A stretch of 64,000 nt of DNA, from contig JAKAFY010000001.1 of assembly GCA_021817785.1 (NCBI GenBank), positions 26,446 to 90,445 of the forward strand, read 5' to 3'. A model generated the notes under the pieces. That model saw only the letters and a list, made by a program, of their open reading frames with translations, was not told the DNA's origin and ran no database searches. Of this stretch, positions 1-22,659 are shown piece by piece; within the stretch, counting starts at the first letter, position 1; the number at the start of each line of letters is the position of its first letter. The DNA is from a bacterium (GTDB taxonomy: Bacteria; Patescibacteriota; Microgenomatia; UBA10105; UBA927). Both the position numbers and the translations under genes were made by a program.

Positions 1-2209
1 TGATGACGGTATGCGTGCCTTGGGGCACTGCTACTGCGCGAAAATCAAAATCAGCACGCAGAAGTGTGACGGGCTTGCCGTCTACCGTTGCATGCCAGCC
101 GGGTGCGAACACGTCCGAAAGGAACAGGAGTTTAGGAGTCGTCGCGTCCGTCCGGATCGTTACGGCATTGGGAAAATATGCGCTGATCGTCGCTTCCCCT
201 GCCCCGGCGCGAGGCTCAATATCCGGCTTCTGCTCTAATACAAGCGTCTCCCTGCGGTCGAATCCCGGGGAAAATAATGTGTTCAGTATCTGCTGATCCC
301 CCGTGACGACCCGGTAATCGGAGGCCAAAAACGCCCGCGGGAACGCAGCGGTGTTTTCAAACACTTCATACGTATTGTCTTTCCATATCGACCGGTACGA
401 GGGGAAATTCCAAAACGGGTATGCCCACGGGAACCGTCCGTCGCTTAGTTTATGGACAAGATAGCGCACCCCAAGCAGCCTGTTGATATCTTCCGCATAC
501 ACACCGTGTTTATTGAGCGTCACGACGGAGTGTTCCAAATTGCCGATCGTGCCGTTGGTCGCGGCCGAAATAAACTGACCATACCGCTTCTGGAATACGG
601 CATCGTATCCTTCCAGATTCGGTATGCCGAACGCGGATGTCACTTCATTGCCGAGATTTCCTGCTATCCGGGCATACGTAGGTTTCACCGTTGCCGTCAA
701 AAACGATAGAACCGGAGCCTCCGGATAGACGTATTCTTTGGGGTCAAACGGCATCCATTTAGCAGCATACCGGTACATGTCAAACGCTGTAACCAGTATG
801 AGGATAAACAGAAGAAACGGTCGCAGACGTTTCGGAGTAAAAAATCCGATGAGTACCACTCCTGCCGATCCCGCAACCAATACCACCGGCAGATAGGAAT
901 TCCGTACGGCCACGATAAGTTTTACGGCGGGCAACGGATGTCCGACGCGCAGCCAAGCCAACAAACCCACGCCGAACACCGCTATACATCCCGCCCAGAA
1001 AAACACCGAACGGCGGATGGGCTTTTGCCATGCTGCGCGCACTTCGTCCGTTCCTATTGCGGAAAGCACCGCCAGACAGAAGCTTACCAGTATGATGATC
1101 CGGGAAGCGGAACTCGTGGAAAGCACCGGAATACGGAGCGCGTACATAAGGTCGTTTAAAGGGGTGGGTACCGCCAGCATAAGAAACAGCAGTGCGGCTC
1201 CCGCAAAAAACAGGACGTGCCGGCTCCGGCGTTTGTATACGATGGCAAAAAAGGCAAGGAGCAACGGGGCGACCCCGATAAAACTCGCCCATTCTGCATA
1301 GTGGCCGAACCAATCATTCCGGGTTACCGGATTGCCGAAAAAATCAGGAGCGAACAGCGTGACAAGATACGACCAAGGGATGATCTCCCCTTTCCCGAAC
1401 GAACTGCTCCTTCCGGACGCTTCGTAGGAAGATAACGCCGGAAATATCTGTGGTGCCGCAATACTTACCCCGGCAAAAATGAACACAAAAAGCAAACCGG
1501 CGGATGTGTTCCGGGGCGATATCCGCCAGAGATAGGTCACATAGAAAAGCGCACACAGCAACACATACACGCTTATCTGAAAATGACCGGACAAGAGAGA
1601 AAGGGCAACGCCCAGAGACACAAGCGGTCCCGCCCACCGTTTCCCCTCCGTGTATCGGTTTGCCGCATAGAGGATAAGCGGCAGATACAGCGCCGCATAC
1701 CCCAGTGTGCCGTATGCCATCCATACCGTCATGAAGCCGCAAAACATAAACGAGACGCTGCCGATTACGCTAGCGGCCCGGGAACGCGCGAGACTGCGCA
1801 AAAACAGATACATAAAAAGTCCTGCGAGTAACGGCTGAAGCAAAATCATCAGGCTCCAGGCATGAATTTCCGGAAGGATGAAAAACAACAGATTCACCGG
1901 AGAGAATACGGCACTCTGGTAATTGCCGGCGTGCGCGGTTCCGGAAAAACTGTACGGATTCCAAAGCGGCACCTCTCCCTGCCGCCACGAGCTGATCGTG
2001 ACCCGTTTCCACGGGTATATTTGCGTAATCACGTCCGGCATGGCATTGTTTTTTACCGGCATGCCATGCGTCGTGCTCCATGGCGCAAAAAACGTCACCA
2101 GGTACGTCGAGGGAAATGGCACACGGTGCTTCACGATATACGGTGAAGCAAAGAGGAGCCAGACGCCGATAATACATCCTACTGCCCAACTGGAACGTAT
2201 ATATTTCAT
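1..2209 (-). CDS. YfhO-like polytopic membrane protein (GT-C-like glycosyltransferase), C-terminally truncated at window edge
   Basis: ATG at 2209 forms an ATGA overlap with the TGA of the upstream GT2 gene. Hand translation of the minus strand gives MKYIRSSWAVGCIIGVWLLFASPYIVKHRVPFPSTYLVTFFAPWSTTHGMPVKNNAMPDVITQIYPWKRVTISSWRQGEVPLWNPYSFSGTAHAGNYQSAVFSPVNLLFF... with no stop down to position 1. The WNPYxFSG/NYQSAVF motif is typical of the YfhO family. The ORF is absent from the supplied track because it has no in-window stop. The three listed minus ORFs 780..1313, 1344..1742 and 1770..2189 are a different, stop-interrupted frame. Confidence 0.7.
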   Translation of the reverse strand, partial: MKYIRSSWAVGCIIGVWLLFASPYIVKHRVPFPSTYLVTFFAPWSTTHGMPVKNNAMPDVITQIYPWKRVTISSWRQGEVPLWNPYSFSGTAHAGNYQSAVFSPVNLLFFILPEIHAWSLMILLQPLLAGLFMYLFLRSLARSRAASVIGSVSFMFCGFMTVWMAYGTLGYAALYLPLILYAANRYTEGKRWAGPLVSLGVALSLLSGHFQISVYVLLCALFYVTYLWRISPRNTSAGLLFVFIFAGVSIAAPQIFPALSSYEASGRSSSFGKGEIIPWSYLVTLFAPDFFGNPVTRNDWFGHYAEWASFIGVAPLLLAFFAIVYKRRSRHVLFFAGAALLFLMLAVPTPLNDLMYALRIPVLSTSSASRIIILVSFCLAVLSAIGTDEVRAAWQKPIRRSVFFWAGCIAVFGVGLLAWLRVGHPLPAVKLIVAVRNSYLPVVLVAGSAGVVLIGFFTPKRLRPFLLFILILVTAFDMYRYAAKWMPFDPKEYVYPEAPVLSFLTATVKPTYARIAGNLGNEVTSAFGIPNLEGYDAVFQKRYGQFISAATNGTIGNLEHSVVTLNKHGVYAEDINRLLGVRYLVHKLSDGRFPWAYPFWNFPSYRSIWKDNTYEVFENTAAFPRAFLASDYRVVTGDQQILNTLFSPGFDRRETLVLEQKPDIEPRAGAGEATISAYFPNAVTIRTDATTPKLLFLSDVFAPGWHATVDGKPVTLLRADFDFRAVAVPQGTHTVI

Positions 2210-3000
2210 ATCAGGGTTTTTTCGTGTTCGTGTGTATCCTCTACTGATTTCCGGTTTTGCAATTCCCAAAGTTTGGCATACGTGATAAACAGACTGAATG
2301 CCTGGTATATGCTCTCCACCCAACCCACCGTACCGGCTCTCCATCCCCCCTGACGGAAATAGGAATTTCCGAAACCGGTTATTGCCACCCGCAAAAGGCG
2401 CCACCAGGATATACTCGGGTGCCCGGCGTGCAACCTGAGAAGCGCTTCGGTTTCCGACCAGTCATTCGTCTTTCTGACCATTTCCTCCAGGCTCCGGTGG
2501 GTATCATGGATCAGTTCCCCGGGCAAATCCCCGATCGCGCCGTCCGTTACCGCAGTTTCATGCAGTTCTCCCTTCCATCCCTTGAGTGCGGTACGCCGGA
2601 ATAGCCGGAGCATCCGTTCGTTTCCCGGCCACCGCTGGCCCAGATAATAATTGGTACGGCACAAACGGTAGCTTGTCGGCTTTTGCTGCGACCATGTGTC
2701 TATGGCCCGGCGTATTTCCCGCGCCAGAGGGGCGCTTACCACCTCATCGGCATCGACATAGAGAAGCCACTCGCCTGTTGCCCGTTTGGCGGCAGCATTC
2801 CGAAGCTCTGCAAAATCCCCCATCGAAAATATGGCGATATGTGCCCCGTGCGCACGGGATACCGCCACGGTTTCATCCGTTGAGCCGTTATCGGCTACCA
2901 GCACCTCATCGCAGAATGCGAGCGCATCGATGCAGGTAGCGATACGCATCGCTTCATTTTTGGCAATGATGATAGCACTAAGCGAATTTTTTCGGTTCAT
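2206..3000 (-). CDS. glycosyltransferase family 2
   Basis: ORF 2206..3033. The likely start is MNRKNSLSAIIIAKNEAMRIATCIDALAFCDEVLVADNGSTDETV (ATG at 3000). GT2 DxD/NGSTD-type N-terminus. Confidence 0.8.
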   Translation of the reverse strand: MNRKNSLSAIIIAKNEAMRIATCIDALAFCDEVLVADNGSTDETVAVSRAHGAHIAIFSMGDFAELRNAAAKRATGEWLLYVDADEVVSAPLAREIRRAIDTWSQQKPTSYRLCRTNYYLGQRWPGNERMLRLFRRTALKGWKGELHETAVTDGAIGDLPGELIHDTHRSLEEMVRKTNDWSETEALLRLHAGHPSISWWRLLRVAITGFGNSYFRQGGWRAGTVGWVESIYQAFSLFITYAKLWELQNRKSVEDTHEHEKTLI

Positions 3001-3898
3001 ATTGTTTTCCCCATTTCCCGAGCATCGCATCACGGATCGCCTGTTTTTTTACCGCGCTCCCGAACCATAAAAACCGCATGCTTTCCCGTATGAGCGCAAT
3101 TTTCGTACGCATCGGCGCGTACCGCATGCCGACCAACAGTCTGTTCCGGGTTATATAGTATTCATGCAGCATATTGCCTGCCCCGCCGGTAGAGCCGGCA
3201 TTGACATGCCAGACAACGGATCGCGGGTAATACACGAGCGTATACCCCCGGGCTTTTGCCCGCAGGCAATAATCCAGATCTTCAAGATAGAGATAAAAAT
3301 GTTCATCCAGAAACCCCACGGATTCCGCAACTGACCGGCGGATCATCATGGAACACCCGGTGATAAACGGTGTTTGTTCCACGGTGTCATACTGTCCGTG
3401 ATCCACTTCATCCACTCCCTTATGACTGGCATACATATTGTCCCAATCCACCAGCCCTCCGGCATACCAGAACACGTTTCCTCGTTCTGACGCACTATAC
3501 CGGTCGTGATGGTACTCGTGACCAGGGGCAAAATATATTTTCGATCCGGCAACTCCCACCGCTTTGTCATCAAATGCGGCCACCAACGACAGCGCATCAG
3601 GGTGTACCAGGGTATCGTTATTCAGTAGCCAAATAAAATCCGCCCCATGCTCCAGTGCATAGTTCATGCCGGCGTTATTGCCTCCCGTAAACCCCAGGTT
3701 GTGTTTCAACGCGATGCAATGGACCCACGGATAGTGGTTTCGTAACACGGAAACCGAGTCGTTGGTGGAACCGTTATCGACAACCACCGTCGTAAGCGTC
3801 ACCCCGCGCTTTTTCAGTTTCATGACGGAATCCAGACATCGGGCGGTGTCCGCTATTCCGTTCCAGTTCACGATGACGATCGCGACATGTTTTGGCAT
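2978..3898 (-). CDS. glycosyltransferase family 2 (rhamnosyl/galactosyl-transferase-like)
   Basis: MPKHVAIVIVNWNGIADTARCLDSVMKLK...VVVDNGSTNDSV, 306 aa. Typical GT2 A-type fold motifs. Confidence 0.8.
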   Translation of the reverse strand: MPKHVAIVIVNWNGIADTARCLDSVMKLKKRGVTLTTVVVDNGSTNDSVSVLRNHYPWVHCIALKHNLGFTGGNNAGMNYALEHGADFIWLLNNDTLVHPDALSLVAAFDDKAVGVAGSKIYFAPGHEYHHDRYSASERGNVFWYAGGLVDWDNMYASHKGVDEVDHGQYDTVEQTPFITGCSMMIRRSVAESVGFLDEHFYLYLEDLDYCLRAKARGYTLVYYPRSVVWHVNAGSTGGAGNMLHEYYITRNRLLVGMRYAPMRTKIALIRESMRFLWFGSAVKKQAIRDAMLGKWGKQYEPKKFA

Positions 3899-3899
3899 A

Positions 3900-4514
3900 T
3901 TAATAGGTAATAATTTTTATCCGTGCGTTGTCTATGTACGCCTCTGCCCGTATGGTGGACTGCGCCATCACGATATACCGCTTATTACCGGGATCCAATG
4001 TTATCACGGCGCTCTGATGGCTGGAGGTATTGGATTCTGTTTGCAGCTGGCTCCCCCATACGTCATGTCCGTCGGTTGCATTAAATAACTTTACGTGCAT
4101 CCACCCAATACCCACAGGAATCCTAAGATAGGATTCAAACGTTACCTGTTTGATTTTGGGATACAGCGACGTATCGATCGTCGCTTCCGCTCCGGGTATT
4201 GCTTCCCATTGGTCATTTTTGGTGGTACCGCTCCCCAACGGGACATAATATTCCTTCGGCGACGTATCGGCCTGCACCGGTGCGACGGACGGCGTCACGG
4301 CAGCAGCCGGATGATCCGTGAGTTTTGCGGTGATCAGACCGGCCATAACCGGCGTGCATGCCGCGGGGCATGCCGAGGGTGCCTCCACCGATATCGGAAC
4401 TGCCGGAGCAGTGTCGGACGCTTTCCCAAAAACGACGATATCGAGAAATACCGTGTTCGTCACGACAAACAACAGCGCTGTCGCTATAAGCAATGTGTTA
4501 AATCGACCGTCCAT
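3900..4514 (-). CDS. hypothetical membrane-anchored/secreted protein
   Basis: 204 aa with an N-terminal hydrophobic helix (LLIATALLFVVTNTVFL), then Ala/Pro/Thr-rich linker and a beta-rich C-terminal domain. No recognizable family. Embedded in the glycosylation operon. Confidence 0.5.
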   Translation of the reverse strand: MDGRFNTLLIATALLFVVTNTVFLDIVVFGKASDTAPAVPISVEAPSACPAACTPVMAGLITAKLTDHPAAAVTPSVAPVQADTSPKEYYVPLGSGTTKNDQWEAIPGAEATIDTSLYPKIKQVTFESYLRIPVGIGWMHVKLFNATDGHDVWGSQLQTESNTSSHQSAVITLDPGNKRYIVMAQSTIRAEAYIDNARIKIITY

Positions 4515-5409
4515 ATCGTCGGAGCAATTTGTACCAGACCTTCAGAACCGGATTTGTCGTATTGGTCATTTTTGACGTTATTTTCCAGTAGGCAACTTCT
4601 CCTCCGGACCGGTCAAACTCTTTCAACACGGAGGACAGCGGCATGTTCTGTTCGGGAAACCGTTCCCGCTCCCAAAGCTTGGCAAATATGATAAACGAAT
4701 AAAACGACTGCAGTATCGAAAGCACCAGACCGTGCAGTCCGTCTTTATACCCGGATTGCGCGAAGTATATTTTCAGAAAATCGGACACGGGAAAACGGAT
4801 TGCGTCCGGCCAGGTTACCCGGTATTTTGCATTGACATACTTTTGCACTTCGTTTTCTATATAGATCACCTGCATTTTTTCCAGATACTGCGCTATGGAA
4901 TCATAATTGTGATGGATATAGGGCGATAGCAGCGTCGCCGTGGGACCGGTGACCGCGATATATTCATGAACGTGTTTTTGCGGGAACGACCCTTTCCCTC
5001 TGCGGAACAGTCGCAATTGCCGATCCGGCCACCACAAACCGTGCTGGATCCAACGCCCGAAAATTATGTTTTTCCGGGGAATCCAAAATCCTGAAATATC
5101 CGAGGATACCGACCGTAACCTGGTGCGAATCTCTTTGGCCAGTTCGTCCGTGACTTCTTCATCGTCATCCAGGTTCAGGATCCATTCCGACGTGGCCTTT
5201 GTGAATCCGAAATTTTTATTGACGTTGAGCATCAGATTATTCGGCTTACTATAGACATGGGGAGTATATTTCTGGGCCACCGTCACCGTATCATCGGTGG
5301 AACCGGAATCCACGACGATAAGCTCATCGGCGAGCGACCGGACCGAAGCCAACGTACGTGCCAGGCTTTTTGACCTGTTATGAGTAGATATGACAACGCT
5401 TAGGCTCAT
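4498..5409 (-). CDS. glycosyltransferase family 2
   Basis: MSLSVVISTHNRSKSLARTLASVRSLADELIVVDSGSTDDT. ATGA overlap with upstream wzx stop. Confidence 0.8.
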   Translation of the reverse strand: MSLSVVISTHNRSKSLARTLASVRSLADELIVVDSGSTDDTVTVAQKYTPHVYSKPNNLMLNVNKNFGFTKATSEWILNLDDDEEVTDELAKEIRTRLRSVSSDISGFWIPRKNIIFGRWIQHGLWWPDRQLRLFRRGKGSFPQKHVHEYIAVTGPTATLLSPYIHHNYDSIAQYLEKMQVIYIENEVQKYVNAKYRVTWPDAIRFPVSDFLKIYFAQSGYKDGLHGLVLSILQSFYSFIIFAKLWERERFPEQNMPLSSVLKEFDRSGGEVAYWKITSKMTNTTNPVLKVWYKLLRRYGRSI

Positions 5410-6854
5410 GGTAATTTACGCAGTGACCGGATAAATCCCTGTATCCGCGCACGGTCAAGCACATATACCGTCACTGCATAAAGTATAACACCCGACGCCC
5501 CCGTAACACCCAACAACGGGATTGTCCGCGGCGTATGGGGAAGAACCAGCAGGTACCACAGGCCCTGTACGACGATCCCTGCTACTGCACTCCATATCTG
5601 TTCCCAAAACGAAAACGGGACGATCTTTTTTACCTCGACCAGCACCCAGATGATCGTCAGCGATATGACGCAGAGGGCTATGGCTACTCCGTTATATCCG
5701 AACAATTTTAGTCCGATCAGGGAAAATACCCAGGTAAGGAGCGTCCACAACACCATAAAAAACAACGTCGTCTTTATCTTCCCTACCGCATTTAATGCGT
5801 TGGTAAGCGGCGTCGTCAGTCCGGCCACTGCCGCCGTGACGACAAAAAAGTAAAACGAGGTCAGCGCCGGATTCCATTTTGCGTATTTGGGGATGATGTC
5901 CACCATCGGATGTACAAAAAACAGCAATCCCATGGAAATTGGGAGCATCGTAAGCGCCAGGCCGTAAATCGTTTTTTCTATCGCTTTGCGCAGGAGATTG
6001 ACGTCATGCTGCAGGCGGGCAAACGCCGGGAATGTCACCCGGATGATGCTGTCCATGATAAGCCGCAGCGGCACCTCTGCCCATTTTTTGGCCCATCCGA
6101 TGTATCCTACCTGGGCAAAAGGCAGGGCTTTCCCCAAAAATATGGTAAATAAGTCATCTTTGAGGAGAGCCAGAAAGGAATTCATCTGGAACGGCACGCC
6201 GAACCGCAACAGGCGGTGCAGCACGTCTTTTGAAAATCCGATGGATATCTTCCACGGACGGATCATATAAATAGTCGTAAGTCCTATGATCCCGCGCGCC
6301 AGCACGCCCCAGGTAAAGCTGGTAATCCCGAATCCCCGCCATGCCAGATAGACCGTTACCACATAGAACCCGAGCGTTTCCGCGATCGTCGGGATCACTA
6401 ATTTATCAAACTGCAATTCCCGCTCCAGAAGGATGGACGGAATAGTTTTCAGCGAGGAAAGGAAAAACGATACGATGAGTGCGCGAAACAGCCAGGTTCC
6501 GGCATCGTTGAGATGGTAGAAATGAGACACAAAACTGGAGCCGATGAACGAAATGATGACCAGGATAACGACCAGAATCTGCTGGATGGTAAATGTCGTC
6601 GTGACTTCGGCATCCGTCAGCGGTTCTTTCTTTTGGACCAACGCCGCTGCCAACCCGATATCAGAAAAATATCCCAAAAACGAAATGACGGCGGACACGA
6701 CATAATACACGCCGAAAATAGACGGAGTTAAAAGAAGCGTCAGCAAAAACGTCGCGGTAAAAGCGATAATCTGCAAAAGAAATGTCCGCGTCGTCAAGGC
6801 GACGATGCCCCGGATCGACCGTTTTTTCAGTGTCGCTATATCAATGTCTTGCAT
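5406..6854 (-). CDS. wzx: Wzx-type oligosaccharide flippase (MOP superfamily polysaccharide biosynthesis protein)
   Basis: 482 aa with about 12-14 predicted TM helices. N-terminus KRSIRGIVALTTRTFLLQIIAFTATFLLTLLLTPSIFGVYYVVSAVISF is typical of the Polysacc_synt/Wzx family. Confidence 0.75.
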   Translation of the reverse strand: MQDIDIATLKKRSIRGIVALTTRTFLLQIIAFTATFLLTLLLTPSIFGVYYVVSAVISFLGYFSDIGLAAALVQKKEPLTDAEVTTTFTIQQILVVILVIISFIGSSFVSHFYHLNDAGTWLFRALIVSFFLSSLKTIPSILLERELQFDKLVIPTIAETLGFYVVTVYLAWRGFGITSFTWGVLARGIIGLTTIYMIRPWKISIGFSKDVLHRLLRFGVPFQMNSFLALLKDDLFTIFLGKALPFAQVGYIGWAKKWAEVPLRLIMDSIIRVTFPAFARLQHDVNLLRKAIEKTIYGLALTMLPISMGLLFFVHPMVDIIPKYAKWNPALTSFYFFVVTAAVAGLTTPLTNALNAVGKIKTTLFFMVLWTLLTWVFSLIGLKLFGYNGVAIALCVISLTIIWVLVEVKKIVPFSFWEQIWSAVAGIVVQGLWYLLVLPHTPRTIPLLGVTGASGVILYAVTVYVLDRARIQGFIRSLRKLP

Positions 6855-12277: not shown

Positions 12278-12334
12278 ACTCCGATTATATCGAAAAACGT
12301 GAAATCTTGCTCGTGTAAATATGCTACACTGAAA

Positions 12335-14548: not shown

Positions 14549-16113
14549 TTCATGGTTCCTTTGTAGTGAACGAGTTTGAATATCGTGACAAATGACACAT
14601 GCCACTGCCCCGCAATGTCCGCGCGCCCGAATCCCGCTATTTCCCACAACGAATCCCCGAGCGGTTTGCAGTCTGCTTTTTCACAAACGATGATAAGCTG
14701 GTCCGTCACGGTTTTGCGGTCGGGATCGACTGCCGTATTTTCTATCGTGACGGGCGCCCGTTTCCATAATTCAAAAAAGTATCGGTATGCATGGTCGGAA
14801 TTCCCTCCGGTCATCAGCGCGAAATTAAACGGTTTGCCGTCGGTTTTGGAAAGCGCTGCCGCGGCGATCGTACGCATCTGACCGAGCTGGTTATTCGGAG
14901 TGGACAAAAACGGCCTGCCCTGCCAGTTCAGATACAAAAGCCCAGACAAAAGGACGACGGCGATACCCGCGCCGATTTTTTTCGCGGACAGGAACCGCAG
15001 AACCAATGCCGTACACAAAAACGGCACCGCATAAAAGAGGCCGAAATAATAGTCATAAATGCCTTTTTTATAAAATCCGAACAACGTAAGCGGGACAAAG
15101 AACCAGATCAGCACCAACACCAATCCTTTCTGCCACCCGTCCGGATGTTTTTTGCGGATAAGCGACAGCGCAAAAACAAAGAGAGATGCCGCCATGACGG
15201 CAGTGACGGATGCGGGCCAGAGCCATGTCCCTATGCCGTGTATGTTCCCCAGCTGTTCCGGCGGAGGCAGACGGAATACCAGCCTGCCAAACACCCGGAA
15301 GGCAACGTCCGTGACCGTCGTCATAAACGACGACGATGCGCCGGTATCTTTCCCTTCCAGTACGAACCGCACGATAGAAATGGTGTTGGGAAATCCGTGC
15401 CGCACTTCAAACGCCAGAAACGGCGCGTATCCCACCAGAAACCCCGCAATACCCAGCGCGTAGTACCGCACCCAGGTCCATGCGCGTCCGTAGAGTAGGT
15501 ACCACACTCCCACGACCACAAAGAGAAAGAGAAAAAGGTAATGAAGCTGCAGCCCTATCCCCAAAATCACGCCGATCCAAAACAGCAGCCCAGGCTGTGT
15601 ATGAACGACGCTTTTCCACAAAAGATACATGAGAAGTACGGCAAAAAACGGCACGGGGTTGGGATTCCAGGATGACCGGGAATACGCGATGACCAGCGGA
15701 GACAATGCATACAGACCGGCAGCGGCAAGTCCCACCCAGGCATCAAACACATCGTGACCGAACCGGTAGACCAGATAAATCGTCGCTATGCCAAACAGCG
15801 CCACCATGACCGCCGCACCCGAAGGATCCAGCCGGAATAGCCACACAAACGGCAGCATGAAATAGTAGTAGATGGGTCCTAAGAAAAATCCGCCGACGGA
15901 CGCGTTCGGGCCAAGCAGCGTAAATTTGTGATTGACGATCATGTGGAGGATGACCAGCATGTCCCGCCCCTCATCCCCCAAAAACGTCATGTACTCGGAT
16001 ATCCTGTACAGACGAAGATACGACCCCACCGCGAGGATAACGGATAAAAGTGCCGTCGGGACGAACTGGCGCAAACGTTTATACCATTGCATAAAAGAAG
16101 ATGTATCGGACAA
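14545..16113 (-). CDS. ArnT/PMT-family (GT39/GT83-like) membrane glycosyltransferase
   Basis: 522 aa. N-terminal LRLYRISEYMTFLGDEGRDMLV carries the DE-containing first periplasmic loop typical of dolichyl/undecaprenyl-phosphate sugar transferases. Many TM helices. Confidence 0.8.
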   Translation of the reverse strand: MSDTSSFMQWYKRLRQFVPTALLSVILAVGSYLRLYRISEYMTFLGDEGRDMLVILHMIVNHKFTLLGPNASVGGFFLGPIYYYFMLPFVWLFRLDPSGAAVMVALFGIATIYLVYRFGHDVFDAWVGLAAAGLYALSPLVIAYSRSSWNPNPVPFFAVLLMYLLWKSVVHTQPGLLFWIGVILGIGLQLHYLFLFLFVVVGVWYLLYGRAWTWVRYYALGIAGFLVGYAPFLAFEVRHGFPNTISIVRFVLEGKDTGASSSFMTTVTDVAFRVFGRLVFRLPPPEQLGNIHGIGTWLWPASVTAVMAASLFVFALSLIRKKHPDGWQKGLVLVLIWFFVPLTLFGFYKKGIYDYYFGLFYAVPFLCTALVLRFLSAKKIGAGIAVVLLSGLLYLNWQGRPFLSTPNNQLGQMRTIAAAALSKTDGKPFNFALMTGGNSDHAYRYFFELWKRAPVTIENTAVDPDRKTVTDQLIIVCEKADCKPLGDSLWEIAGFGRADIAGQWHVSFVTIFKLVHYKGTMK

Positions 16114-16147: not shown

Positions 16148-17263
16148 TTATTTCTTCCATATTACCTTGGAATATATGACGTAATTCCATACCATGATGA
16201 AGGCGGTGCCGAGAAGAAAAAAGTCGAAATACCACCGGTCCCCGAACAGACGGACGCCGAGCGCTATGGTCCCCGTTTGTATCACAATCACCCCGAACGC
16301 ACTCGTCGCGTAAAAATGCAGCAATTTCGTAACGTATTGTCCGGCTCCGGAAATTTTTTTGTGGCGGAATGTCCAGAGATTATTTAAGTTATAGTTCGAA
16401 AATATGGCGACAGCCGCCCCCACCAGATTCGCGTACGTCGCCGACATATGTGCTTTGTGGAGCAGTACCAGTATGCCTGCGTTGAGGACAAATCCTATGC
16501 CTCCTACGACCAGGAATTTACCGAACGAACCGTGGATAAATTCTTCTATTCTCGCCAGGGCGATATATCTATAAATATTGAAAATATATTCCGCCGGGGC
16601 GATTTTGGAATGCCCGTACAACCGGTCCGTAAAATGAAACGGGATTTCGCGGACGATTGCGCCGTGATGGATCGATTTATGCAAAAACGCGATTTGGAAT
16701 ACGTAGCCGCTGTATTGTTCCATTTCCCGGTGCGTTGTGTCGTAAAAATGCCTGGTGTACGCGCGGTACCCGCCGGTCCAGTCGCGGACGTTGGGGTGCC
16801 AGAGTCCGAAGCGTACGATGTTGTTTCCGACGATGCTGTAAATTTTCCGTATGAGTCCCCAATTTTCCGGAATCGCGCCTCCGGGGATATACCGGCTGCC
16901 CACGGCAAACGTGGCGCCTTTTTCGATTGCTTCGAGCAACCGGGGGGCGACTGAAGGATCGTGGGACAAATCCGCATCGATCTGCAGCACGACGTCGGCA
17001 TGCATGTGCTCAAACGCTTCCGTCATACCCCGGAGGATCGCTTTGCCCAGGCCTTCTTTTTTTCCGGAGATGAGATAGACGTTTTTGTGCGTTTTCTGAT
17101 ACGCCTTGACGACGGTGGCCGTGCCGTCCGGAGAGGTATCGTCGACGACGAGGTAGGAAATGGTGTACGTTTGTTTCGTGCCAAACGCATCCGCTAATTT
17201 TGTCAGAAGGACGCGAATATTTTCTCGTTCGTTATACGTGGGAATGACAACGACAACATTCAT
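16148..17263 (-). CDS. polyprenol-phosphate mannose synthase (Ppm1/DPM1-like GT2) fused to C-terminal GtrA-like membrane domain
   Basis: MNVVVVIPTYNERENIRVLL...VVDDTSPDGT...QIDADLSHDP, followed by a 4-TM C-terminal GtrA-like segment (FLVVGGIGFVLNAGILVLL...WNYVIYSKVIWKK). Confidence 0.85.
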   Translation of the reverse strand: MNVVVVIPTYNERENIRVLLTKLADAFGTKQTYTISYLVVDDTSPDGTATVVKAYQKTHKNVYLISGKKEGLGKAILRGMTEAFEHMHADVVLQIDADLSHDPSVAPRLLEAIEKGATFAVGSRYIPGGAIPENWGLIRKIYSIVGNNIVRFGLWHPNVRDWTGGYRAYTRHFYDTTHREMEQYSGYVFQIAFLHKSIHHGAIVREIPFHFTDRLYGHSKIAPAEYIFNIYRYIALARIEEFIHGSFGKFLVVGGIGFVLNAGILVLLHKAHMSATYANLVGAAVAIFSNYNLNNLWTFRHKKISGAGQYVTKLLHFYATSAFGVIVIQTGTIALGVRLFGDRWYFDFFLLGTAFIMVWNYVIYSKVIWKK

Positions 17264-17277: not shown

Positions 17278-18234
17278 TTAGACCCGTTCTCTCCAGTAAT
17301 TGAGAAGGTCTGCGGCGGTCTTTTCAAACGCGATTTCTGGTGACCAGCCGGTTTTGGCCTTGAACTTGGATGCGTCACCGATCAGAATCGGGACATCCGA
17401 AGGTCGCATGCGCGCCGGATCCTGCTTTATTTCCACTTTTACTTTGCTCATGGCGAGCATCATGTTCAGGACGTCTGCGATTTTTATCGCTTTGCCGGTG
17501 GCAATATTGTACACTTCCCCGGGATCACACTTTTCGACGGCCAGGAGGTACGCGCGTACCATGTCCCGGACATCGGTATAGTCCCGCTGTGCTTCCAGGT
17601 TTCCGACGTAAATGACCGGCTCCTGTTTGCCTTTTTCTATAAGGGCGATCTGTTTGGCAAACGTGGATTCCGCAAACGTGTCTCCGCGGCGCGGCCCGGT
17701 GTGGTTAAATCCGCGGGTCCGGACGATTCGGGTTTTGTAGGATTCGAAATACTGGTATCCCAGATAATCCATCGCGAGTTTGGATACCGCATAGGGCGAT
17801 AACGGACGCAGCGGATTGGTTTCTTTTATCGGCACTTCGTTTTCATAGACCATGCCGTATTCTTCGGACGAACAGGCGATCTGGATGACCGGATCTATGC
17901 CGACCTGCCGCACTGCTTCGAATAAATTCGCGGATCCTACGATGTTGACCTCCAGCGTGACTGCCGGGGATCCCCAGGACGTCGGGACAAACGACTGGGC
18001 TGCCAGGTGGAAAATATAATCCGGCTTTATTTTATTGATCGTCGTATACAAACTGTGGCTATCCAGTAAATCCGCATCCTCTAAATGCAGTTTCCCTTTT
18101 ATGGACTCTATGTGGTCCATTTTGCTCCGCGGCCGGCACAAACCGGACACTTCCACGCCCTGGGAAAGCAGAAGTTCTGCCATATAACTGCCGACAAATC
18201 CGGCTATCCCCGTAATCAATGCTTTTTTTGCCAT
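17278..18234 (-). CDS. NAD-dependent sugar-nucleotide 4,6-dehydratase/reductase (GDP-mannose 4,6-dehydratase Gmd/Rmd-like)
   Basis: Start MAKKALITGIAGFVGSYMAELLLSQGVEVSGL with ATG at 18234 preceded by AGGAGG. Extended SDR motifs GxxGxxG, SSEEYG and YAVSK (YxxxK). Confidence 0.8.
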   Translation of the reverse strand: MAKKALITGIAGFVGSYMAELLLSQGVEVSGLCRPRSKMDHIESIKGKLHLEDADLLDSHSLYTTINKIKPDYIFHLAAQSFVPTSWGSPAVTLEVNIVGSANLFEAVRQVGIDPVIQIACSSEEYGMVYENEVPIKETNPLRPLSPYAVSKLAMDYLGYQYFESYKTRIVRTRGFNHTGPRRGDTFAESTFAKQIALIEKGKQEPVIYVGNLEAQRDYTDVRDMVRAYLLAVEKCDPGEVYNIATGKAIKIADVLNMMLAMSKVKVEIKQDPARMRPSDVPILIGDASKFKAKTGWSPEIAFEKTAADLLNYWRERV

Positions 18235-18306: not shown

Positions 18307-19602
18307 TCACATTCTTCCTATACCGTAATACATGAATCCCAAATTACGAACCACCGCAGGCTCGTAAATGTTTCTTCCATCAAATAATACCAGATTTTTC
18401 ATCCCTTTGGCTAGACGCACAAGGTCCAGTTGGCGGAATTCATTCCATTCGGTAATGACGGCGACGGCGTCGGCGTCTTTGGCAGCCTCGTATGCGTCTT
18501 TTGCGTAGACGACTGCTTTCGGAAGTTTCAGTTTGGCTTTTTCCGTGGCGATCGGGTCAAATACGGTCACACTGGCGCCTTTATCCAGAAGCGACGCGAT
18601 GATGTCCAAAGACGGCGCTTCGCGCATGTCATCCGTATCCGGCTTGAATGCCAGTCCCAATACCGCGATCCGTTTTCCTTTGAGGGAACCGAAATGCCGC
18701 ACCATTTTGGCCACGAAATTCTCCCGCGCTTCGTTGTTTACCTTATGTACGGCTTTGAGTAACGAAAAATCATATCCGTACTCCCCGGCTATGGCGATAA
18801 GTGCCTTGACGTCTTTAGGAAAACAGCTGCCGCCGTAGCCCACCCCGGGATACAGGAAACTGCGGCCGATCCGCTTGTCCAGACCTACCCCCTCGAGTAC
18901 CCGTTCCACATCCGCTCCCACTTTTTCGGCGAGAAACGAAATGGCGTTGGCAAACGATATTTTGGTAGCCAGCATGGAATTGGACGCATATTTGATCAGT
19001 TCCGCAGTTTCCACATTGCACAATACGTTTTTCCCGTCGATCGGTTTGTGGAGTTCTACCAATATGTCTCTCGCGCGGTCCGAATTGGTTCCGATGACGA
19101 CGCGGTCAGGGTGCATGGTGTCGGAAAGGCCGGTCCCTTCGCGCAAAAACTCAGGACACGACGCGATGGCAAACGACGACCCCTCGGGCTTGAATGTATT
19201 GACGATCTCGGATACTTTTTTCCCGGTCCCCGGGGGCACCGTACTTTTGGTCACCACGACTTTGTATCCCACCAGGGCTTTGCCGATTTCTTCCGCGGCG
19301 GCAAATACGCTGGTCAGATCCGCCTCCCCGTTGGGTTTCGACGGCGTACCCACGGCGATAAATACGACGTTTGAGGGGGCGACGGCTTCTTTATAATCCA
19401 GCGTAAAATGCAGCCTCCCTGCACCGATATTCCGTTGCACGAGTTCGGTAAGTCCCGGCTCGTAGATTAACGGGTCGCCTTTTTTCAATTTTTCAATTTT
19501 TTCTTTGGTGCGTCCTACGACCCATACGGTATTGCCCAAATCCGCAAACACCGCGGCGGTCACAAGTCCCACATATCCGTGTCCGATAAATGCAATAGTC
19601 AT
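18307..19602 (-). CDS. ugd: UDP-glucose 6-dehydrogenase
   Basis: Start MTIAFIGHGYVGLVTAAVFADLGNTVWVVGRTKEKIEKLKKGDPLIYEPGLTELV. Has the catalytic GGSCFPKD motif and a C-terminal UDP-binding domain. Confidence 0.85.
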   Translation of the reverse strand: MTIAFIGHGYVGLVTAAVFADLGNTVWVVGRTKEKIEKLKKGDPLIYEPGLTELVQRNIGAGRLHFTLDYKEAVAPSNVVFIAVGTPSKPNGEADLTSVFAAAEEIGKALVGYKVVVTKSTVPPGTGKKVSEIVNTFKPEGSSFAIASCPEFLREGTGLSDTMHPDRVVIGTNSDRARDILVELHKPIDGKNVLCNVETAELIKYASNSMLATKISFANAISFLAEKVGADVERVLEGVGLDKRIGRSFLYPGVGYGGSCFPKDVKALIAIAGEYGYDFSLLKAVHKVNNEARENFVAKMVRHFGSLKGKRIAVLGLAFKPDTDDMREAPSLDIIASLLDKGASVTVFDPIATEKAKLKLPKAVVYAKDAYEAAKDADAVAVITEWNEFRQLDLVRLAKGMKNLVLFDGRNIYEPAVVRNLGFMYYGIGRM

Positions 19603-19645: not shown

Positions 19646-20521
19646 CTATACCGTTTCCTGCCGGTGCACCTCGGCAACTCCCTCGGCAAAATCGTGCATG
19701 ACAACTCCGAGATCCGTAATTTTCCTGTTTTTCAGCACGGCGTATTGGGGTATGGGAGCGCGCCCCGAGAAATATTCGGAAAATGACGTCTCTTGTACTA
19801 AGGACGCATCGCATCCGTATATATTTGCTATCGTTTTGGCCGCTTCATACGGGGATATCCCGGTACTCGAAACGATGTGATAGATGCCCGATGCCTGCCG
19901 GGTCATAAGGGCGTCTACGGCACGCGCGATGTCATCCACAAACGTCGGAACGAATAATTGGTCGGCGGGGGCCGTCACCTGCTGCCCTGCCTGCAGGCGT
20001 TCCAGTATTTTATGGACGAAATCCTTTTTGCCTACCGGATGTGCGCGGTACGGATTGGCGATACGGATGACCAGCCCGTGGTCTCCCAGGCTTAGCACCC
20101 GTTTGGCTCCTTCGGATTTGGTCGTTGCATACCAGCCCTGCGGATGCGGCGTATCGTCTTCGCTGTATCCATCCTTTTTTGTTCCGTCAAATGCATAATC
20201 CGTATCCACATACAGCAGCCGTTTTCCCGTCTCCCGGCACGCGTCCGCGATATATTGGGTGGCAGTCACGTTTACCTTCCATGCGGCACTTTCTTCCCCA
20301 AGCGCCCGTTCCGCTTCCGCGCCCTGTACGTTGGTGTAGGCCGCAAGGTGCAGCACCCATGGGGCACTGGTTTCCGCCGTGATACGGGCGGTAATATCCG
20401 CTTTGTCGGTTATGTCTACGCCGTTTTCCAGACTGTAGTTTTCAAACGTGTATGAGGAAGACAACAGTTCTGTGACGCGGGATCCGACGAGTCCTGAAAG
20501 GCCAGTTCCCAGTAGTTTCAT
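19646..20521 (-). CDS. rmlD: dTDP-4-dehydrorhamnose reductase
   Basis: Start MKLLGTGLSGLVGSRV with ATG at 20521 forming an ATGA overlap with the rmlB stop. RmlD-like length (291 aa) with a YAxxK motif region. Confidence 0.75.
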   Translation of the reverse strand: MKLLGTGLSGLVGSRVTELLSSSYTFENYSLENGVDITDKADITARITAETSAPWVLHLAAYTNVQGAEAERALGEESAAWKVNVTATQYIADACRETGKRLLYVDTDYAFDGTKKDGYSEDDTPHPQGWYATTKSEGAKRVLSLGDHGLVIRIANPYRAHPVGKKDFVHKILERLQAGQQVTAPADQLFVPTFVDDIARAVDALMTRQASGIYHIVSSTGISPYEAAKTIANIYGCDASLVQETSFSEYFSGRAPIPQYAVLKNRKITDLGVVMHDFAEGVAEVHRQETV

Positions 20522-21534
20522 ACGGTGCCCTGATACTGCGTTGTATAGTAGGTCTGATACGCGCCTGATTTTACATCGCGCCACCACGGCTCGTTTGCCC
20601 GGTACCATTCGACCGTACGGGTGAGCCAGGTATCAAAGTCATGCTGCGGTTTCCATCCGAGGTCATTTTTGATCTTGGACCAGTCGACCGCATATCTTCG
20701 GTCATGGCCCAGGCGGTCTTTCACGAATTCGATGGAAGACTCGTCTTTCCCCATGAGGGAAATGATCTTTTTTACGATCGTTATATTATTGATATCTTCC
20801 GTGGTCCCCCCGACACAATAGGTTTCCCCGACTTTTCCGTCGGACAGTACGGCATCTATGGCGCGGCAGTGGTCCTCGACGTAGAGCCAGTCCCGGACGT
20901 TTAACCCGTCTCCGTACACCGGCACTTTTTTCCCTTCCACCAAATTCGTAATCACCAGCGGAATAAGTTTTTCCGGAAACTGGTACGGGCCGTAGTTGTT
21001 GGAGCAGTTGGTGATCGTCACCGGCAATCCAAAAGTGTGGTAATACGCCCGCACGAGATGATCCGAGCCCGCCTTGCTTGCGGAATACGGACTTCTGGGG
21101 TTATAGAGTGTTCGTTCACTAAATGTATCCGGAGTGCCCAGTTCCAGTGATCCGAACACTTCATCCGTCGATACATGATGAAACCGTCTGACTTTGGCTT
21201 TGAGCGCCGCATCCAACAGAACCTGCGTGCCCACGACATTGGTCATGACAAAAGGCGCCGCTTCCAGTATGGACCGGTCGACATGACTTTCGGCTGCAAA
21301 GTGTACCACGATGTCGATGCCGTCCATCACCGCACCGACTGCCTTCGCATCGCAGATATCCCCCTGCACGAAACGGTACTGCGGATTTTTTTCCACCGAT
21401 GTCAGATTGTTGAGGTTTCCGGCATACGTCAGCTTGTCAAAATTTACGACCGTATCCTCCGGGTGATGGGATAGCCAGTATATGATAAAGTTGGTTCCGA
21501 TAAATCCGGCTCCGCCGGTGACAAGTAATTTCAT
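20518..21534 (-). CDS. rmlB: dTDP-glucose 4,6-dehydratase
   Basis: Start MKLLVTGGAGFIGTNFIIYWLSHHPEDTVVNFDKLTYAGNLNNL, 338 aa. Classic RmlB signature including YSASKAGSDHLVRAY. Confidence 0.9.
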   Translation of the reverse strand: MKLLVTGGAGFIGTNFIIYWLSHHPEDTVVNFDKLTYAGNLNNLTSVEKNPQYRFVQGDICDAKAVGAVMDGIDIVVHFAAESHVDRSILEAAPFVMTNVVGTQVLLDAALKAKVRRFHHVSTDEVFGSLELGTPDTFSERTLYNPRSPYSASKAGSDHLVRAYYHTFGLPVTITNCSNNYGPYQFPEKLIPLVITNLVEGKKVPVYGDGLNVRDWLYVEDHCRAIDAVLSDGKVGETYCVGGTTEDINNITIVKKIISLMGKDESSIEFVKDRLGHDRRYAVDWSKIKNDLGWKPQHDFDTWLTRTVEWYRANEPWWRDVKSGAYQTYYTTQYQGTV

Positions 21535-21640: not shown

Positions 21641-22390
21641 TCACAGCAGTCCCTGCTTCACCCGCTCCGCCACCTGCATATTGGCAGCCAGTAACTCGTC
21701 ATGCGACGTCCCCGCGTCCACCCACCAGTCGATGACTTCGCACATCAGGGACTTTTCCTTAAGATACATGTTGTTTAAATCCGTGACTTCCAGCTGTCCC
21801 CGTGCGGACGGCGTAAGCGTGCGGACAAAGTCAAACACCCGGTGGTCATACAGATACACGCCGGTTTGGGCGATATCGCTTTTGGGTTTTTCCGGTTTTT
21901 CTTCTATGCTCAGCACTTTTCCTTCGCCATCCATTTCGATGACGCCGTATTGCCGGGCCTCGGTATCCCGCCGCACGCCAAAGACCATTGCGCCGCGCGT
22001 TTCCTTTTCAAGCTGCGCAGTAAACCGCTCGACGGATTTTTTGAGGTCGAATTTAAAGATGTTATCCCCCAATATCACCAGAAGCGGTTCATGGTGGGAA
22101 AATTCTTCCGCAAGCTTCATGGCGTCCGCAATGCCTCCGGTCGGATTATGCTGGATGGCATAATACAGACGCATATCGAATTCGTCTCCGGACTTTAACA
22201 GGTTCGCGAAATCCCCGACGTGGTCGCCGCTGGTAATAAGCAACGCTTCTTTCATCCCGGCCTGGCGCATCATCTCCAGGGGGTAGTAAATCATCGGCTT
22301 GTTATACACCGGCAACAGATGTTTATTCGTCACCCACGTCAGCGGGCGAAGTCTGGTGGCCAATCCTCCTGCAAGTACGACACCTTTCAT
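21641..22390 (-). CDS. rmlA: glucose-1-phosphate thymidylyltransferase (short form)
   Basis: Start MKGVVLAGGLATRLRPLTWVTNKHLLPVYNKPMIYYPLEMM with ATG at 22390 preceded by AAGGAG. 249 aa nucleotidyltransferase fold. Confidence 0.8.
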   Translation of the reverse strand: MKGVVLAGGLATRLRPLTWVTNKHLLPVYNKPMIYYPLEMMRQAGMKEALLITSGDHVGDFANLLKSGDEFDMRLYYAIQHNPTGGIADAMKLAEEFSHHEPLLVILGDNIFKFDLKKSVERFTAQLEKETRGAMVFGVRRDTEARQYGVIEMDGEGKVLSIEEKPEKPKSDIAQTGVYLYDHRVFDFVRTLTPSARGQLEVTDLNNMYLKEKSLMCEVIDWWVDAGTSHDELLAANMQVAERVKQGLL

Positions 22391-22410
22391 AGGTAGTAGC
22401 TCCTTTCTCT

Positions 22411-22659
22411 TTATACCGCCAGCGTCAACAGTAAAACGATGGCAATTGATCCAATGAGGACATATTCTATCACAACGTTTCGATGCAGGTCTCCCTGCAG
22501 GGCATGATGGATGATACCCCATGCGACATAAGCGATCGTCGTCACCAGTCCGGCCACCAGCTGCAATTGCGTGTTCCCTTTGGCATACCAAAAGGTCAAC
22601 GCTCCTCCGGCCAGGATACAAAGCAGGACGAATCCGTGAATCAGTTTATGGAATTTCAT
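22411..22659 (-). CDS. small membrane protein (2 TM), unknown function
   Basis: Start MKFHKLIHGFVLLCILAGGALTFWYAKG with ATG at 22659 forming an ATGA overlap with the upstream stop. Two hydrophobic helices. Confidence 0.4.
   Translation of the reverse strand: MKFHKLIHGFVLLCILAGGALTFWYAKGNTQLQLVAGLVTTIAYVAWGIIHHALQGDLHRNVVIEYVLIGSIAIVLLLTLAV

Follow-up and report, generated by a model that had tools for sequence, protein, structure and literature searches.

A conserved operon-like gene cluster for predicted glycosylation outside the membrane in a Candidatus Gottesmanbacteria genome

The sequence analyzed here, referred to as the window, is a 64-kb stretch of contig JAKAFY010000001.1 (assembly GCA_021817785.1). 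The host genome belongs to Candidatus Gottesmanbacteria (Microgenomates, Patescibacteria/Candidate Phyla Radiation, CPR). The left part of the window carries a dense cluster of genes for nucleotide sugars, polyprenyl-phosphate sugar synthases (PPS), a flippase and large membrane glycosyltransferases of the GT-C type, whose families were assigned by Pfam and NCBIfam scans (Table 1). All substantial genes from window position 2 to approximately 26500 lie on the minus strand. In the direction of transcription, from high to low coordinates, the housekeeping genes TsaE and TsaC are followed by the genes for a serine hydrolase, the 23650–24252 protein, a CAP-domain protein and RmlA. The genes encoding RmlB, RmlD, Ugd, a short-chain dehydrogenase/reductase (SDR), PPS3, PMT2b, PPS2, a GT87-like protein, PMT2a and a GT-C protein without a Pfam match come next, and they are followed by those for PTPS_related, PPS1, Wzx, GT2c, the 3900–4514 protein, GT2b, GT2a and YfhO. 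The intergenic spacing is -53 to +106 nt almost throughout the cluster; the exceptions are the 343 nt between the genes of the GT87-like protein and PMT2a and the 265 nt between the CAP gene and rmlA. The scans for promoters and terminators were uninformative, with promoter-like sites at or below the shuffle expectation and terminator-like sites located mostly within genes.

The original prediction, made from the letters of the sequence, described a near-continuous glycosylation cluster on a single strand at positions 1–22621. The spacing of the genes agrees with this description, except that one gene inside the cluster, encoding a SemiSWEET protein, lies on the plus strand. The boundaries had to be revised at both ends. 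The left window edge cuts through the YfhO gene, with about 7 kb of the cluster lying beyond it, while position 22621 only reflects the longest open reading frame (ORF) of rmlA, the real start of which is at approximately 22390. The CAP-domain protein and the two further proteins of unassigned function that were included in the prediction do exist, but the CAP protein and the 23650–24252 protein are encoded outside the predicted end.

Table 1. Features of the glycosylation cluster and its immediate neighbors, listed in the direction of transcription. Positions refer to the window unless a locus is named.
Feature	Position	Strand	Evidence
Membrane-anchored Ser/Thr-rich protein	23650..24252	-	no Pfam match; in 2 of the longer metagenome loci only
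Membrane-anchored CAP-domain protein	22656..23594	-	Pfam CAP E 1.9e-18
RmlA-like glucose-1-phosphate thymidylyltransferase	21641..22390	-	Pfam NTP_transferase E 1.5e-54; TIGR01207 227 bits, below cut-off 360
RmlB, dTDP-glucose 4,6-dehydratase	20518..21534	-	TIGR01181 486 bits, above cut-off 365
RmlD-like dTDP-4-dehydrorhamnose reductase	19646..20521	-	Pfam RmlD_sub_bind E 4.5e-56; TIGR01214 187 bits, below cut-off 224
Ugd, UDP-glucose (NDP-sugar) 6-dehydrogenase	18307..19602	-	three UDPG_MGDP_dh Pfam domains, E 2e-59, 3e-37, 7e-35
Extended SDR nearest GDP-6-deoxy-D-lyxo-4-hexulose reductase (Rmd)	17278..18234	-	281 bits to 2pk3
PPS3, polyprenyl-phosphate sugar synthase of the Dol-P-Man synthase (DPMS) type	16148..17263	-	Pfam GT2 and GtrA_DPMS_TM (63.4 bits)
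PMT2b, PMT_2 GT-C	14545..16092	-	PMT_2 35.7 bits, cut-off 26.1
PPS2, polyprenyl-phosphate sugar synthase-like GT2, 249 aa	13799..14548	-	best PDB matches DPMS, GtrB (sll0501), ArnC
GT87/MptA_B-like GT-C (formerly DUF2029)	12621..13790	-	PF09594 20.8 bits, below cut-off 25
SemiSWEET (MtN3_slv/PQ-loop), 73 aa	12446..12667	+	Pfam MtN3_slv 33.4 bits, cut-off 23.7
PMT2a, PMT_2 GT-C	10754..12277	-	PMT_2 (PF13231) 38.2 bits, cut-off 26.1
Pfam-less GT-C	9234..10757	-	no Pfam match; GT-C by fold
PTPS_related GT-C, YfhO-like group	7562..9229	-	PF10131 34.9 bits, cut-off 26.4
PPS1, polyprenyl-phosphate sugar synthase-like GT2, 249 aa, no transmembrane domain	6841..7590	-	best PDB matches DPMS 5mlz (E 1e-14), ArnC
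Wzx-type (MOP superfamily) flippase	5406..6854	-	Pfam Polysacc_synt_3 E 9e-52
GT2c glycosyltransferase	4498..5409	-	Pfam Glycos_transf_2 E 4e-25
Accessory membrane-anchored protein	3900..4514	-	no Pfam match; N-terminal transmembrane helix, CxxxC, disordered linker, C-terminal jelly roll
GT2b glycosyltransferase	2978..3898	-	Pfam Glyco_tranf_2_3 E 3e-18
GT2a glycosyltransferase, GT2c paralogue	2206..3030	-	Pfam Glycos_transf_2 E 4e-14; colinear in related loci
YfhO-family GT-C	2..2209	-	Pfam YfhO 80.5 bits, cut-off 28.5; start MKYIRSS at 2209
575-aa polytopic membrane protein	L089 11667-13394 (~5.2-6.9 kb left of window edge)		last gene of the cluster; 'PDEFD' after the first transmembrane helix

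Six large membrane proteins in the window had been predicted to be GT-C-like, three of them YfhO-like, two ArnT/PMT-like with DE loops and one DUF2029-like. Six GT-C proteins are indeed present, including two PMT_2 proteins and one GT87-like protein, but only one of the three proteins called YfhO-like matches the Pfam family YfhO. The profile searches placed none of the large membrane proteins in a family other than glycosyltransferases. The first 736 of the 768 amino acids of the YfhO protein are encoded inside the window and its C-terminus lies beyond the edge; the full length of 768 amino acids is seen in the related loci L002, L003 and L089. The ORFs listed at 780–1313, 1344–1742 and 1770–2189 on the minus strand were rejected as arginine-rich wrong-frame shadows inside the YfhO gene. 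The 7562–9229 protein, PTPS_related, and the Pfam-less 9234–10757 protein are mutual paralogues with 25% identity over the full length (E 4e-32), and the hidden Markov models (HMMs) of the two groups cross-match with E values of 1e-60 to 1e-67. The match of the Pfam-less family HMM to YfhO is faint (E 4e-7), with weak YfhO matches in 5 of 22 members. Judged by the Pfam threshold, both proteins would be GT-C-like yet not members of YfhO.

The fold of the Pfam-less protein was assessed with an AlphaFold model built from a 22-sequence alignment. The model is confident (pLDDT 83.8, pTM 0.84), and the top matches of a Foldseek search against the PDB are all GT-C enzymes, namely AftD, PglB, STT3, ALG12, ArnT and AftA; among bacterial structures the fold is closest to AftD and AftA. 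The structure prediction that had been suggested as a check thus returned the GT-C fold for this protein. Its family is large: after clustering at 50% identity, it counts 2650 representatives at E<=1e-30. For the GT87-like protein, GT87 matches were obtained in 17 of 24 orthologues at E<=0.01 (best 4.8e-9), and a precomputed match to the MptA_B family (PF26314) is recorded for the protein and its orthologues. The likely start of PMT2a is M44 of the longest ORF (10754–12406), in view of a median orthologue length of 506 amino acids.

Each of the six GT-C orthologue sets, of 54–83 sequences, shows an acidic motif directly after the first transmembrane (TM) helix, TM1, with a conservation of at least 93%. 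In characterized GT-C enzymes, the catalytic aspartate occupies this position. The motif comprises D59 in YfhO (at least 93% conserved in 64 sequences), H30-D31 in PTPS_related (conserved in 76 sequences), D36-D37 in the Pfam-less protein and the invariant D29 in the GT87-like protein. The DE loops predicted for the two PMT_2 proteins were found as well: PMT2a has a D-E pair after TM1 and PMT2b the motif G-D40-E41-G-R-D44, with at least 93% conservation across 74 and 54 sequences, respectively.

Three synthases of the DPM1/Ppm1 type, one of them fused to GtrA, had been proposed. The three putative synthases are present and are about 30% identical to each other, with 30% between PPS1 and PPS2; the closest solved relatives of all three are DPMS, GtrB and ArnC, and ArnC is among the PDB matches of each. 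PPS3 consists of a GT2 domain and a C-terminal GtrA/DPMS domain with four TM helices. Its residues 1–369 align with residues 23–372 of the Dol-P-Man synthase of Pyrococcus furiosus (5mlz, E 1e-37). With this full-length match the fusion is the ordinary architecture of archaeal-type DPMS, and the idea of a novel fusion was rejected. Among the NCBIfam models, PPS1–3 come closest to PgfS, AglJ, Dol-P-hexose transferase, ArnC and PpgS without reaching the equivalog cut-off of any of them, and PgfS is the top match of both PPS1 and PPS2. These relationships fit the prediction of PPS1–3 as polyprenyl-phosphate sugar synthases.

The genes rmlA, rmlB, rmlD and ugd and an SDR gene were found on the minus strand as predicted; RmlB alone among the sugar-nucleotide genes exceeds its NCBIfam equivalog cut-off. 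The SDR had been described as a Gmd/Rmd-like dehydratase, but the enzyme closest to it is a reductase. It aligns end to end with Rmd of Aneurinibacillus thermoaerophilus (2pk3), roughly half of the positions being identical by eye, and it reaches 199 bits with the NCBIfam gmd model, below the cut-off of 415. The rmlC gene was not found anywhere in the 64-kb window with the query sequence used. This absence is real at that sensitivity because the same query locates rmlC between rmlA and rmlB in nine sister loci (L103, L104, L107, L109, L110, L115, L116, L120 and L126). The rmlA–rmlB junction of the window (21534–21641) contains no rmlC, and the gene has been lost from this position in the lineage of the window. 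Either rmlC moved elsewhere or the product may not be L-rhamnose. In the window the dTDP-L-rhamnose pathway RmlABCD is represented by RmlA, RmlB and RmlD without rmlC, and the GDP-D-rhamnose pathway by the Rmd-like SDR without a Gmd partner, and both are incomplete.

The three further GT2 glycosyltransferases and the Wzx flippase of the original prediction were confirmed by Pfam. GT2a and GT2c share 32% identity, and GT2b is weakly similar to rhamnosyltransferase and GlfT1 models (TIGR01556, 58.8 bits, below cut-off). The three GT2 proteins lack the PPS-like pattern and are best read as putative ordinary cytoplasmic glycosyltransferases.

The cluster could be followed beyond the left window edge in L089, a locus of the same population (identity of 99.985% across 6459 nt) that reaches about 7 kb further. 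This region contains the rest of YfhO, a GT4, a second YfhO of 749 amino acids (Pfam YfhO, 82.3 bits), another GT2, an S-adenosylmethionine (SAM) methyltransferase and a 575-amino-acid polytopic protein, after which a gene on the opposite strand follows. Neither Pfam nor any of the six GT-C family HMMs matched the 575-amino-acid protein. It is not counted as a confirmed GT-C but could represent an eighth one, from yet another family. From rmlA to the gene of this protein the cluster spans approximately 29 kb, or approximately 30.5 kb if the CAP gene is counted, which corresponds to about 3% of a Gottesmanbacteria chromosome (OY969569.1, 995 kb).

The exact Wzx and GT2a proteins are also encoded on contigs of the NCBI metagenome-assembled genome GCA_027424485.1, of ENA assemblies and of several Logan run assemblies, and the identical Wzx protein occurs on nine contigs from independent assemblies. 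The independently assembled contigs are 99.95–100% identical to the window. A chimeric assembly, which had been named as a possible objection, is excluded by these matching contigs and by a gene order that recurs in dozens of species.

The homologues of the Pfam-less GT-C are assigned by source name to Patescibacteria or Candidatus Gottesmanbacteria. In a scan of species-representative genomes, a relative was present in 172 species. For the analysis of synteny, 80 genome loci were fetched and searched by tblastn with 23 window proteins. These loci are labeled Gottesmanbacteria, Levybacteria, Woesebacteria, Microgenomates or Patescibacteria, besides generic or evidently misbinned titles. Colinearity, proposed earlier as a check, is pronounced: all 16 core genes, from RmlD through YfhO, keep their order in 34 of the 48 fully flanked species-level loci; for the six genes at the center (PPS2, GT87-like, PMT2a, Pfam-less GT-C, PTPS_related and Wzx) this number is 46. 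Across the colinear loci the amino-acid identity of the orthologues is 29–74%. The conservation of the order of the 16 genes is far beyond chance. The gene order of the cluster recurs in the 80 genome loci and in about 30 long metagenome loci. Some records carrying the cluster (L042, L074, L081 and many among L012–L088) are titled Bacteroidia, Parcubacteria, Pacearchaeota or (uncultured) Gammaproteobacteria; they are likely to be misbinned contigs or to bear placeholder taxonomy.

Most of the longer metagenome loci have the order TsaC, CAP, RmlA, (RmlC), RmlB, RmlD, Ugd, SDR, PPS3 and PMT2b. In the Levybacteria-type loci the genes from PPS2 through YfhO are kept together with extra YfhO-like copies, and the block from the rml genes to PMT2b is absent. 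In a second metagenome clade (L127–L172) the CAP-to-PMT2b part stands alone and is followed by housekeeping genes (phosphoribosyltransferase, SecDF). Since the Levybacteria-type loci and the second clade each hold one part, the locus is a fusion of separable modules. PMT2b always comes next after PPS3, including in the clade without the rest of the cluster. In the second clade the Rmd-like SDR lies beside a Gmd-like SDR (447 bits, Pfam GDP_Man_Dehyd) and another epimerase (L145, 7093–10000). By comparison, the lineage of the window seems to have a reduced set of nucleotide-sugar genes, having lost rmlC, gmd and the epimerase.

On balance, we regard the cluster in the window as the right-hand 22 kb of an approximately 30-kb, operon-like and vertically inherited envelope-glycan cluster. 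With moderate confidence we propose that it combines at least three modules for multi-component transmembrane glycosylation and probably builds an envelope glycan outside the membrane, as in mycobacteria. In module A (CAP, RmlA, RmlB, RmlD, Ugd, the Rmd-like SDR, PPS3 and PMT2b), nucleotide sugars would be made, and one of them would be loaded on polyprenyl phosphate and transferred outside the membrane. Module B (PPS2, the GT87-like protein, PMT2a, the two YfhO-related GT-Cs and PPS1) would supply two more polyprenyl-phosphate sugars for use by four GT-Cs. Module C consists of Wzx, the three GT2 proteins and YfhO and, past the window edge, of the GT4, the second YfhO, the GT2, the SAM methyltransferase and the polytopic protein; here a lipid-linked oligosaccharide may be built on the cytoplasmic face, flipped and further modified. 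The soluble or peripheral GT2 and GT4 enzymes would assemble a primer on the polyprenyl carrier, which Wzx would flip. The three PPS would charge polyprenyl phosphate with single sugars, flipped by the DPMS/GtrA-type TM domain or by Wzx, and the 7–8 GT-Cs with their conserved aspartate in the first outer loop would elongate and branch the glycan on the outer face.

The number of GT-Cs per donor places this scheme closer to mycobacterial lipomannan and arabinan assembly than to one-sugar decoration. The ratio of GT-C to PPS proteins is at least 7:3 and, together with the MptA_B assignment of one GT-C, points to several linkages per donor. Characterized MptA/B members polymerize mannan from polyprenyl-phosphate mannose. 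As the acceptor we favor a wall polysaccharide or a lipoglycan. Families, fold, motifs, spacing, synteny and modularity were computed, and from them we infer the substrates, topology, flipping, order of action and acceptor. The general idea of the original prediction, glycosylation outside the membrane from polyprenyl-phosphate sugars, fits everything tested; its term 'periplasmic' is loose for what is presumably a CPR cell with a single membrane.

Multi-component transmembrane glycosylation is defined by a GT-A synthase of C55-P-sugars, a flippase of the GtrA or Wzx type and a GT-C that carries a DxD-like motif in an extracellular loop (PMC8035078). By sequence, the cluster contains the synthase, the flippase and the GT-C motif of this definition. 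As in the GtrA/GtrB/GtrC, CsbB-GtcA-YfhO, GacI-L and Lactococcus CsdA-F systems, a GT2 synthase adjoins a GT-C with an acidic outer-loop motif, and the GtrA/DPMS-type TM domain, the Wzx-type flippase and the Pfam families YfhO and PMT_2 are likewise shared with multi-component systems (PMC8035078). Unlike these systems, the cluster has three synthases for 7–8 GT-Cs in a string of about 30 kb and not isolated 1:1 pairs, it has no free-standing GtrA, two of its GT-Cs belong to a family without a Pfam model, and it is found in a CPR bacterium whose genome measures about 1 Mb.

The mycobacterial and corynebacterial envelope machinery comprises Ppm1 with PimE, MptA, MptB and MptC, the Emb and Aft enzymes and a rhamnose linker. 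The cluster resembles it, by analogy as far as function is concerned, in several GT-Cs per few polyprenyl-phosphate-sugar donors, a DPMS/Ppm-like synthase and dTDP-rhamnose genes; in addition, one GT-C is assigned to GT87/MptA_B, and the fold of the Pfam-less GT-C is closest to the mycobacterial-type enzymes AftD and AftA among bacterial structures. In contrast to mycobacteria, the GT-Cs of the cluster show no sequence-level similarity to PimE, Emb or Aft, no genes of the decaprenylphosphoryl-arabinose (DPA) pathway, of phosphatidylinositol mannosides (PIM) or of phosphatidylinositol were seen here, and the genes form one operon-like string, whereas the mycobacterial genes are scattered.

The succession of Ugd, SDR, GT2 synthase and PMT_2 GT-C (19602 down to 14545) mirrors Ugd, ArnA, ArnC and ArnT of the ArnC/ArnT pathway, which adds aminoarabinose to lipid A. 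However, the cluster lacks an aminotransferase, formyltransferase, deformylase and ArnE/F, its SDR is Rmd/Gmd-like and not ArnA-like, and its synthase is DPMS-like. CPR bacteria are reported to have no lipid A, as stated for a Parcubacterium (PMC5220378). In common with the S-layer glycan (slg) clusters and the rhamnose-rich wall polysaccharide clusters, the locus has rml genes, an Rmd-like reductase, GT2 and GT4 enzymes, a methyltransferase, Wzx and GT-C side-chain transferases. The slg clusters in question are those of Aneurinibacillus and Geobacillus, and the wall polysaccharide clusters those of streptococci and lactococci. In contrast to both, the locus contains no ABC transporter, no WsaB- or O-antigen-ligase-type transferase, no LytR-CpsA-Psr (LCP) ligase and no GacO/TagO-type initiator; rmlC and gmd are absent here, and the GT-C content is far higher.

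It is highly improbable that the cluster is an artefact, in the sense of a chimeric assembly or of membrane proteins that are in fact transporters. The sole weak point is that the 9234–10757 and 12621–13790 proteins are below the Pfam thresholds on their own, but the fold searches put the former firmly among GT-Cs and 17 of the 24 orthologues of the latter match Pfam GT87, while the near-identical ENA, NCBI and Logan contigs and the gene order recurring in 80 genome and about 30 metagenome loci contradict a chimera. Several observations weigh against a composite that builds one envelope glycan. The nucleotide-sugar set is incomplete in the window, where rmlC and the Gmd partner are absent. The cluster genes and the scanned window ORFs yielded no initiating phosphoglycosyl transferase, no Wzy polymerase, no regulator of chain length and neither an LCP ligase nor a transferase of the O-antigen-ligase type, and the cluster therefore accounts for neither the start nor the anchoring of any polymer; of a Wzx/Wzy-dependent pathway, Wzx alone was found in the same set. 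The modules are separate in other lineages and thus need not act on one product, and the characterized GT-A/GT-C pairs of Firmicutes only decorate polymers made elsewhere (PMC8035078). When the PDB was searched with the sequences of the GT-C proteins and with profiles of two of the families, no match at E<=1 was obtained. The GT-Cs of the cluster thus show no detectable sequence relationship with GT-Cs of solved structure, and homology gives no basis for assigning their donors or acceptors.

Some of these observations would also be expected if several independent decoration systems were merely co-located, each PPS/GT-C set adding single side-chain sugars to different polymers made elsewhere, an explanation that we consider possible but rather unlikely. 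The models would be CsdAB, CsdCD and CsdEF of Lactococcus or CsbB/YfhO of Bacillus, and the targets teichoic-acid-like polymers, wall polysaccharide or a glycolipid. The adjacent GT-A/GT-C pairs PPS3–PMT2b and PPS2–GT87, the occurrence of module A alone in one clade and of modules B and C without A in Levybacteria, and the lack of an initiating transferase, polymerase or ligase in the cluster are consistent with it, as is the fact that all characterized Gram-positive YfhO and PMT_2 enzymes are decorators (PMC8035078). However, 7–8 GT-Cs are found for three synthases, compared with 1:1 in known decoration systems; Wzx, 4–5 cytoplasmic glycosyltransferases and a methyltransferase lie inside the same conserved string of overlapping genes; one GT-C resembles the polymerizing MptA/B family; and modules B and C are strictly colinear down to about 35% identity. 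We give a still lower probability to protein O-glycosylation as the main function, with PMT-like, TfpW-like or PgfM/PgtC-like GT-Cs acting on Ser/Thr-rich surface proteins such as S-layer proteins, type IV pilins or membrane-anchored proteins like CAP, and with the rml, Rmd-like, GT2, GT4 and methyltransferase genes building an S-layer-type glycan. PMT_2, matched by two proteins, is named after the protein O-mannosyltransferases, yet neither protein is detectably similar in sequence to the solved Pmt1, Pmt2 or Pmt4, and ArnT belongs to the same family, as do many enzymes that decorate teichoic acid or wall polysaccharide (PMC8035078). The top NCBIfam match of PPS1 and PPS2, PgfS, belongs to a protein-glycosylation locus of S. 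mutans, and the SDR is most similar to Rmd of A. thermoaerophilus, which is part of an S-layer glycan pathway; the YfhO and GT87/MptA_B precedents, on the other hand, act on glycopolymers or glycolipids, and the cluster has neither an S-layer gene nor an oligosaccharyltransferase of the Wzy_C type. Possible substrates are offered by the P/A/S/T-rich linker of the CAP protein and by Thr/Pro-rich secreted proteins encoded nearby, but neither the length nor the composition of the CAP linker is constant. In streptococci, GT-Cs are documented to glycosylate disordered regions rich in Ser/Thr (PMC12041528).

For the 3900–4514 protein no more than 21 homologues could be detected, which are either unnamed or belong to Patescibacteria; the CxxxC motif is mostly conserved, and the protein is present in a minority of the related loci. 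The AlphaFold2 model of its C-terminal domain is a jelly roll with pLDDT >90, and in Foldseek the domain is most similar to two TNF-like lectins (PLTL and BC2L-C-Nt), to carbohydrate-binding modules and to ExsFA, a protein of the exosporium, with TM-scores of about 0.5. The structural match is suggestive only, but a role as a carbohydrate-binding helper would agree with the suggestion that GT-Cs of small size may depend on another protein for binding the acceptor (PMC8035078). The CAP protein is composed of a TM helix, the CAP domain, the variable linker and two TM helices, and this architecture is the same in 27 orthologues. The order TsaC–CAP–RmlA is held in most of the longer metagenome loci, which makes the CAP protein a conserved neighbor; it is possibly a substrate, or unrelated to the pathway. 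In the same loci the serine hydrolase and the 200-amino-acid 23650–24252 protein are not conserved neighbors, and the latter is probably not a core member.

The SemiSWEET gene, the sole plus-strand gene within the cluster, overlaps the 3′ end of the GT87-like gene. It is found in 7 of 68 related loci, restricted to the closest relatives, and is a recent insertion. Its location is curious, since MPDU1, the eukaryotic Dol-P-Man utilization factor, is a PQ-loop protein as well. A role as a core counterpart of MPDU1, that is as a flippase or chaperone for polyprenyl-phosphate sugars, was rejected on account of its presence in only these 7 loci.

Further to the right, the minus-strand gene at 26932–27756 encodes a secreted protein with a long Thr/Pro-rich tract (PTHTPTPVPTTTTAPTNTPNPTATHTPSPSVTPTATPSST), a C-terminal TM helix and no Pfam match, a plausible candidate for an O-glycosylation substrate near the cluster. 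It is followed by a low-GC island at 27800–31800 (GC 0.36–0.42, about 0.52 elsewhere) with three orphan ORFs without a Pfam match (27867–28541, 28511–28867 and 28886–29578) and an AAA_28 ATPase (29858–30502). The island is probably acquired DNA, for example a mobile or defence island. The window also contains two paralogous Ser_hydrolase genes (24736–25329 and 40043–40585) and two genes for DsbA-like thioredoxins (40652–41602 and 49287–50396), all on the minus strand, and a tRNA-Glu gene at 61933–62007. The rest of the window is occupied by housekeeping genes, including TsaC/TsaE, FtsEX, RF2, RuvAB, SecA, a MacAB-like ABC system and a P-type ATPase.

In the full-text literature no description of the cluster was found in searches that combined CPR, Patescibacteria, Gottesmanbacteria or Microgenomates with glycosylation topics. 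A study of a CPR genome describes the envelope of these bacteria as unclear in both formation and structure and notes only an abundance of glycosyltransferases and rml genes (PMC5220378). The view that the locus is not a textbook one holds for the combination of its parts, but each part is of a known kind and the arrangement is standard and conserved in the lineage. Since every component is of a known enzymatic kind, the advance lies in the organization and in the biology of the lineage and does not concern a new mechanism. The cluster also draws attention to a large GT-C family without a Pfam model.

A more far-reaching interpretation, which we put forward tentatively and consider doubtful, is that the cluster makes a lineage-specific Microgenomates envelope polymer, a lipoglycan or wall heteroglycan, polymerized outside from three polyprenyl-phosphate-sugar donors by the 7–8 GT-Cs. 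If true, the mycobacterial strategy of building such a polymer outside would have an independent second example. Two of the GT-Cs involved come from a large uncharacterized family that Pfam does not cover. The system would take up about 3% of a genome of 1 Mb, and the polymer would probably be the surface by which these episymbionts contact their hosts. Independently of this interpretation, the composite of glycosylation modules that we prefer provides a concrete parts list for a surface glycoconjugate, consisting of three synthases, 7–8 GT-Cs, Wzx and soluble glycosyltransferases. The cluster probably specifies the main surface glycoconjugate of the lineage. Because mostly uncultured bacteria with genomes of about 1 Mb keep these 30 kb colinear across a whole class, it is probably central to their biology.

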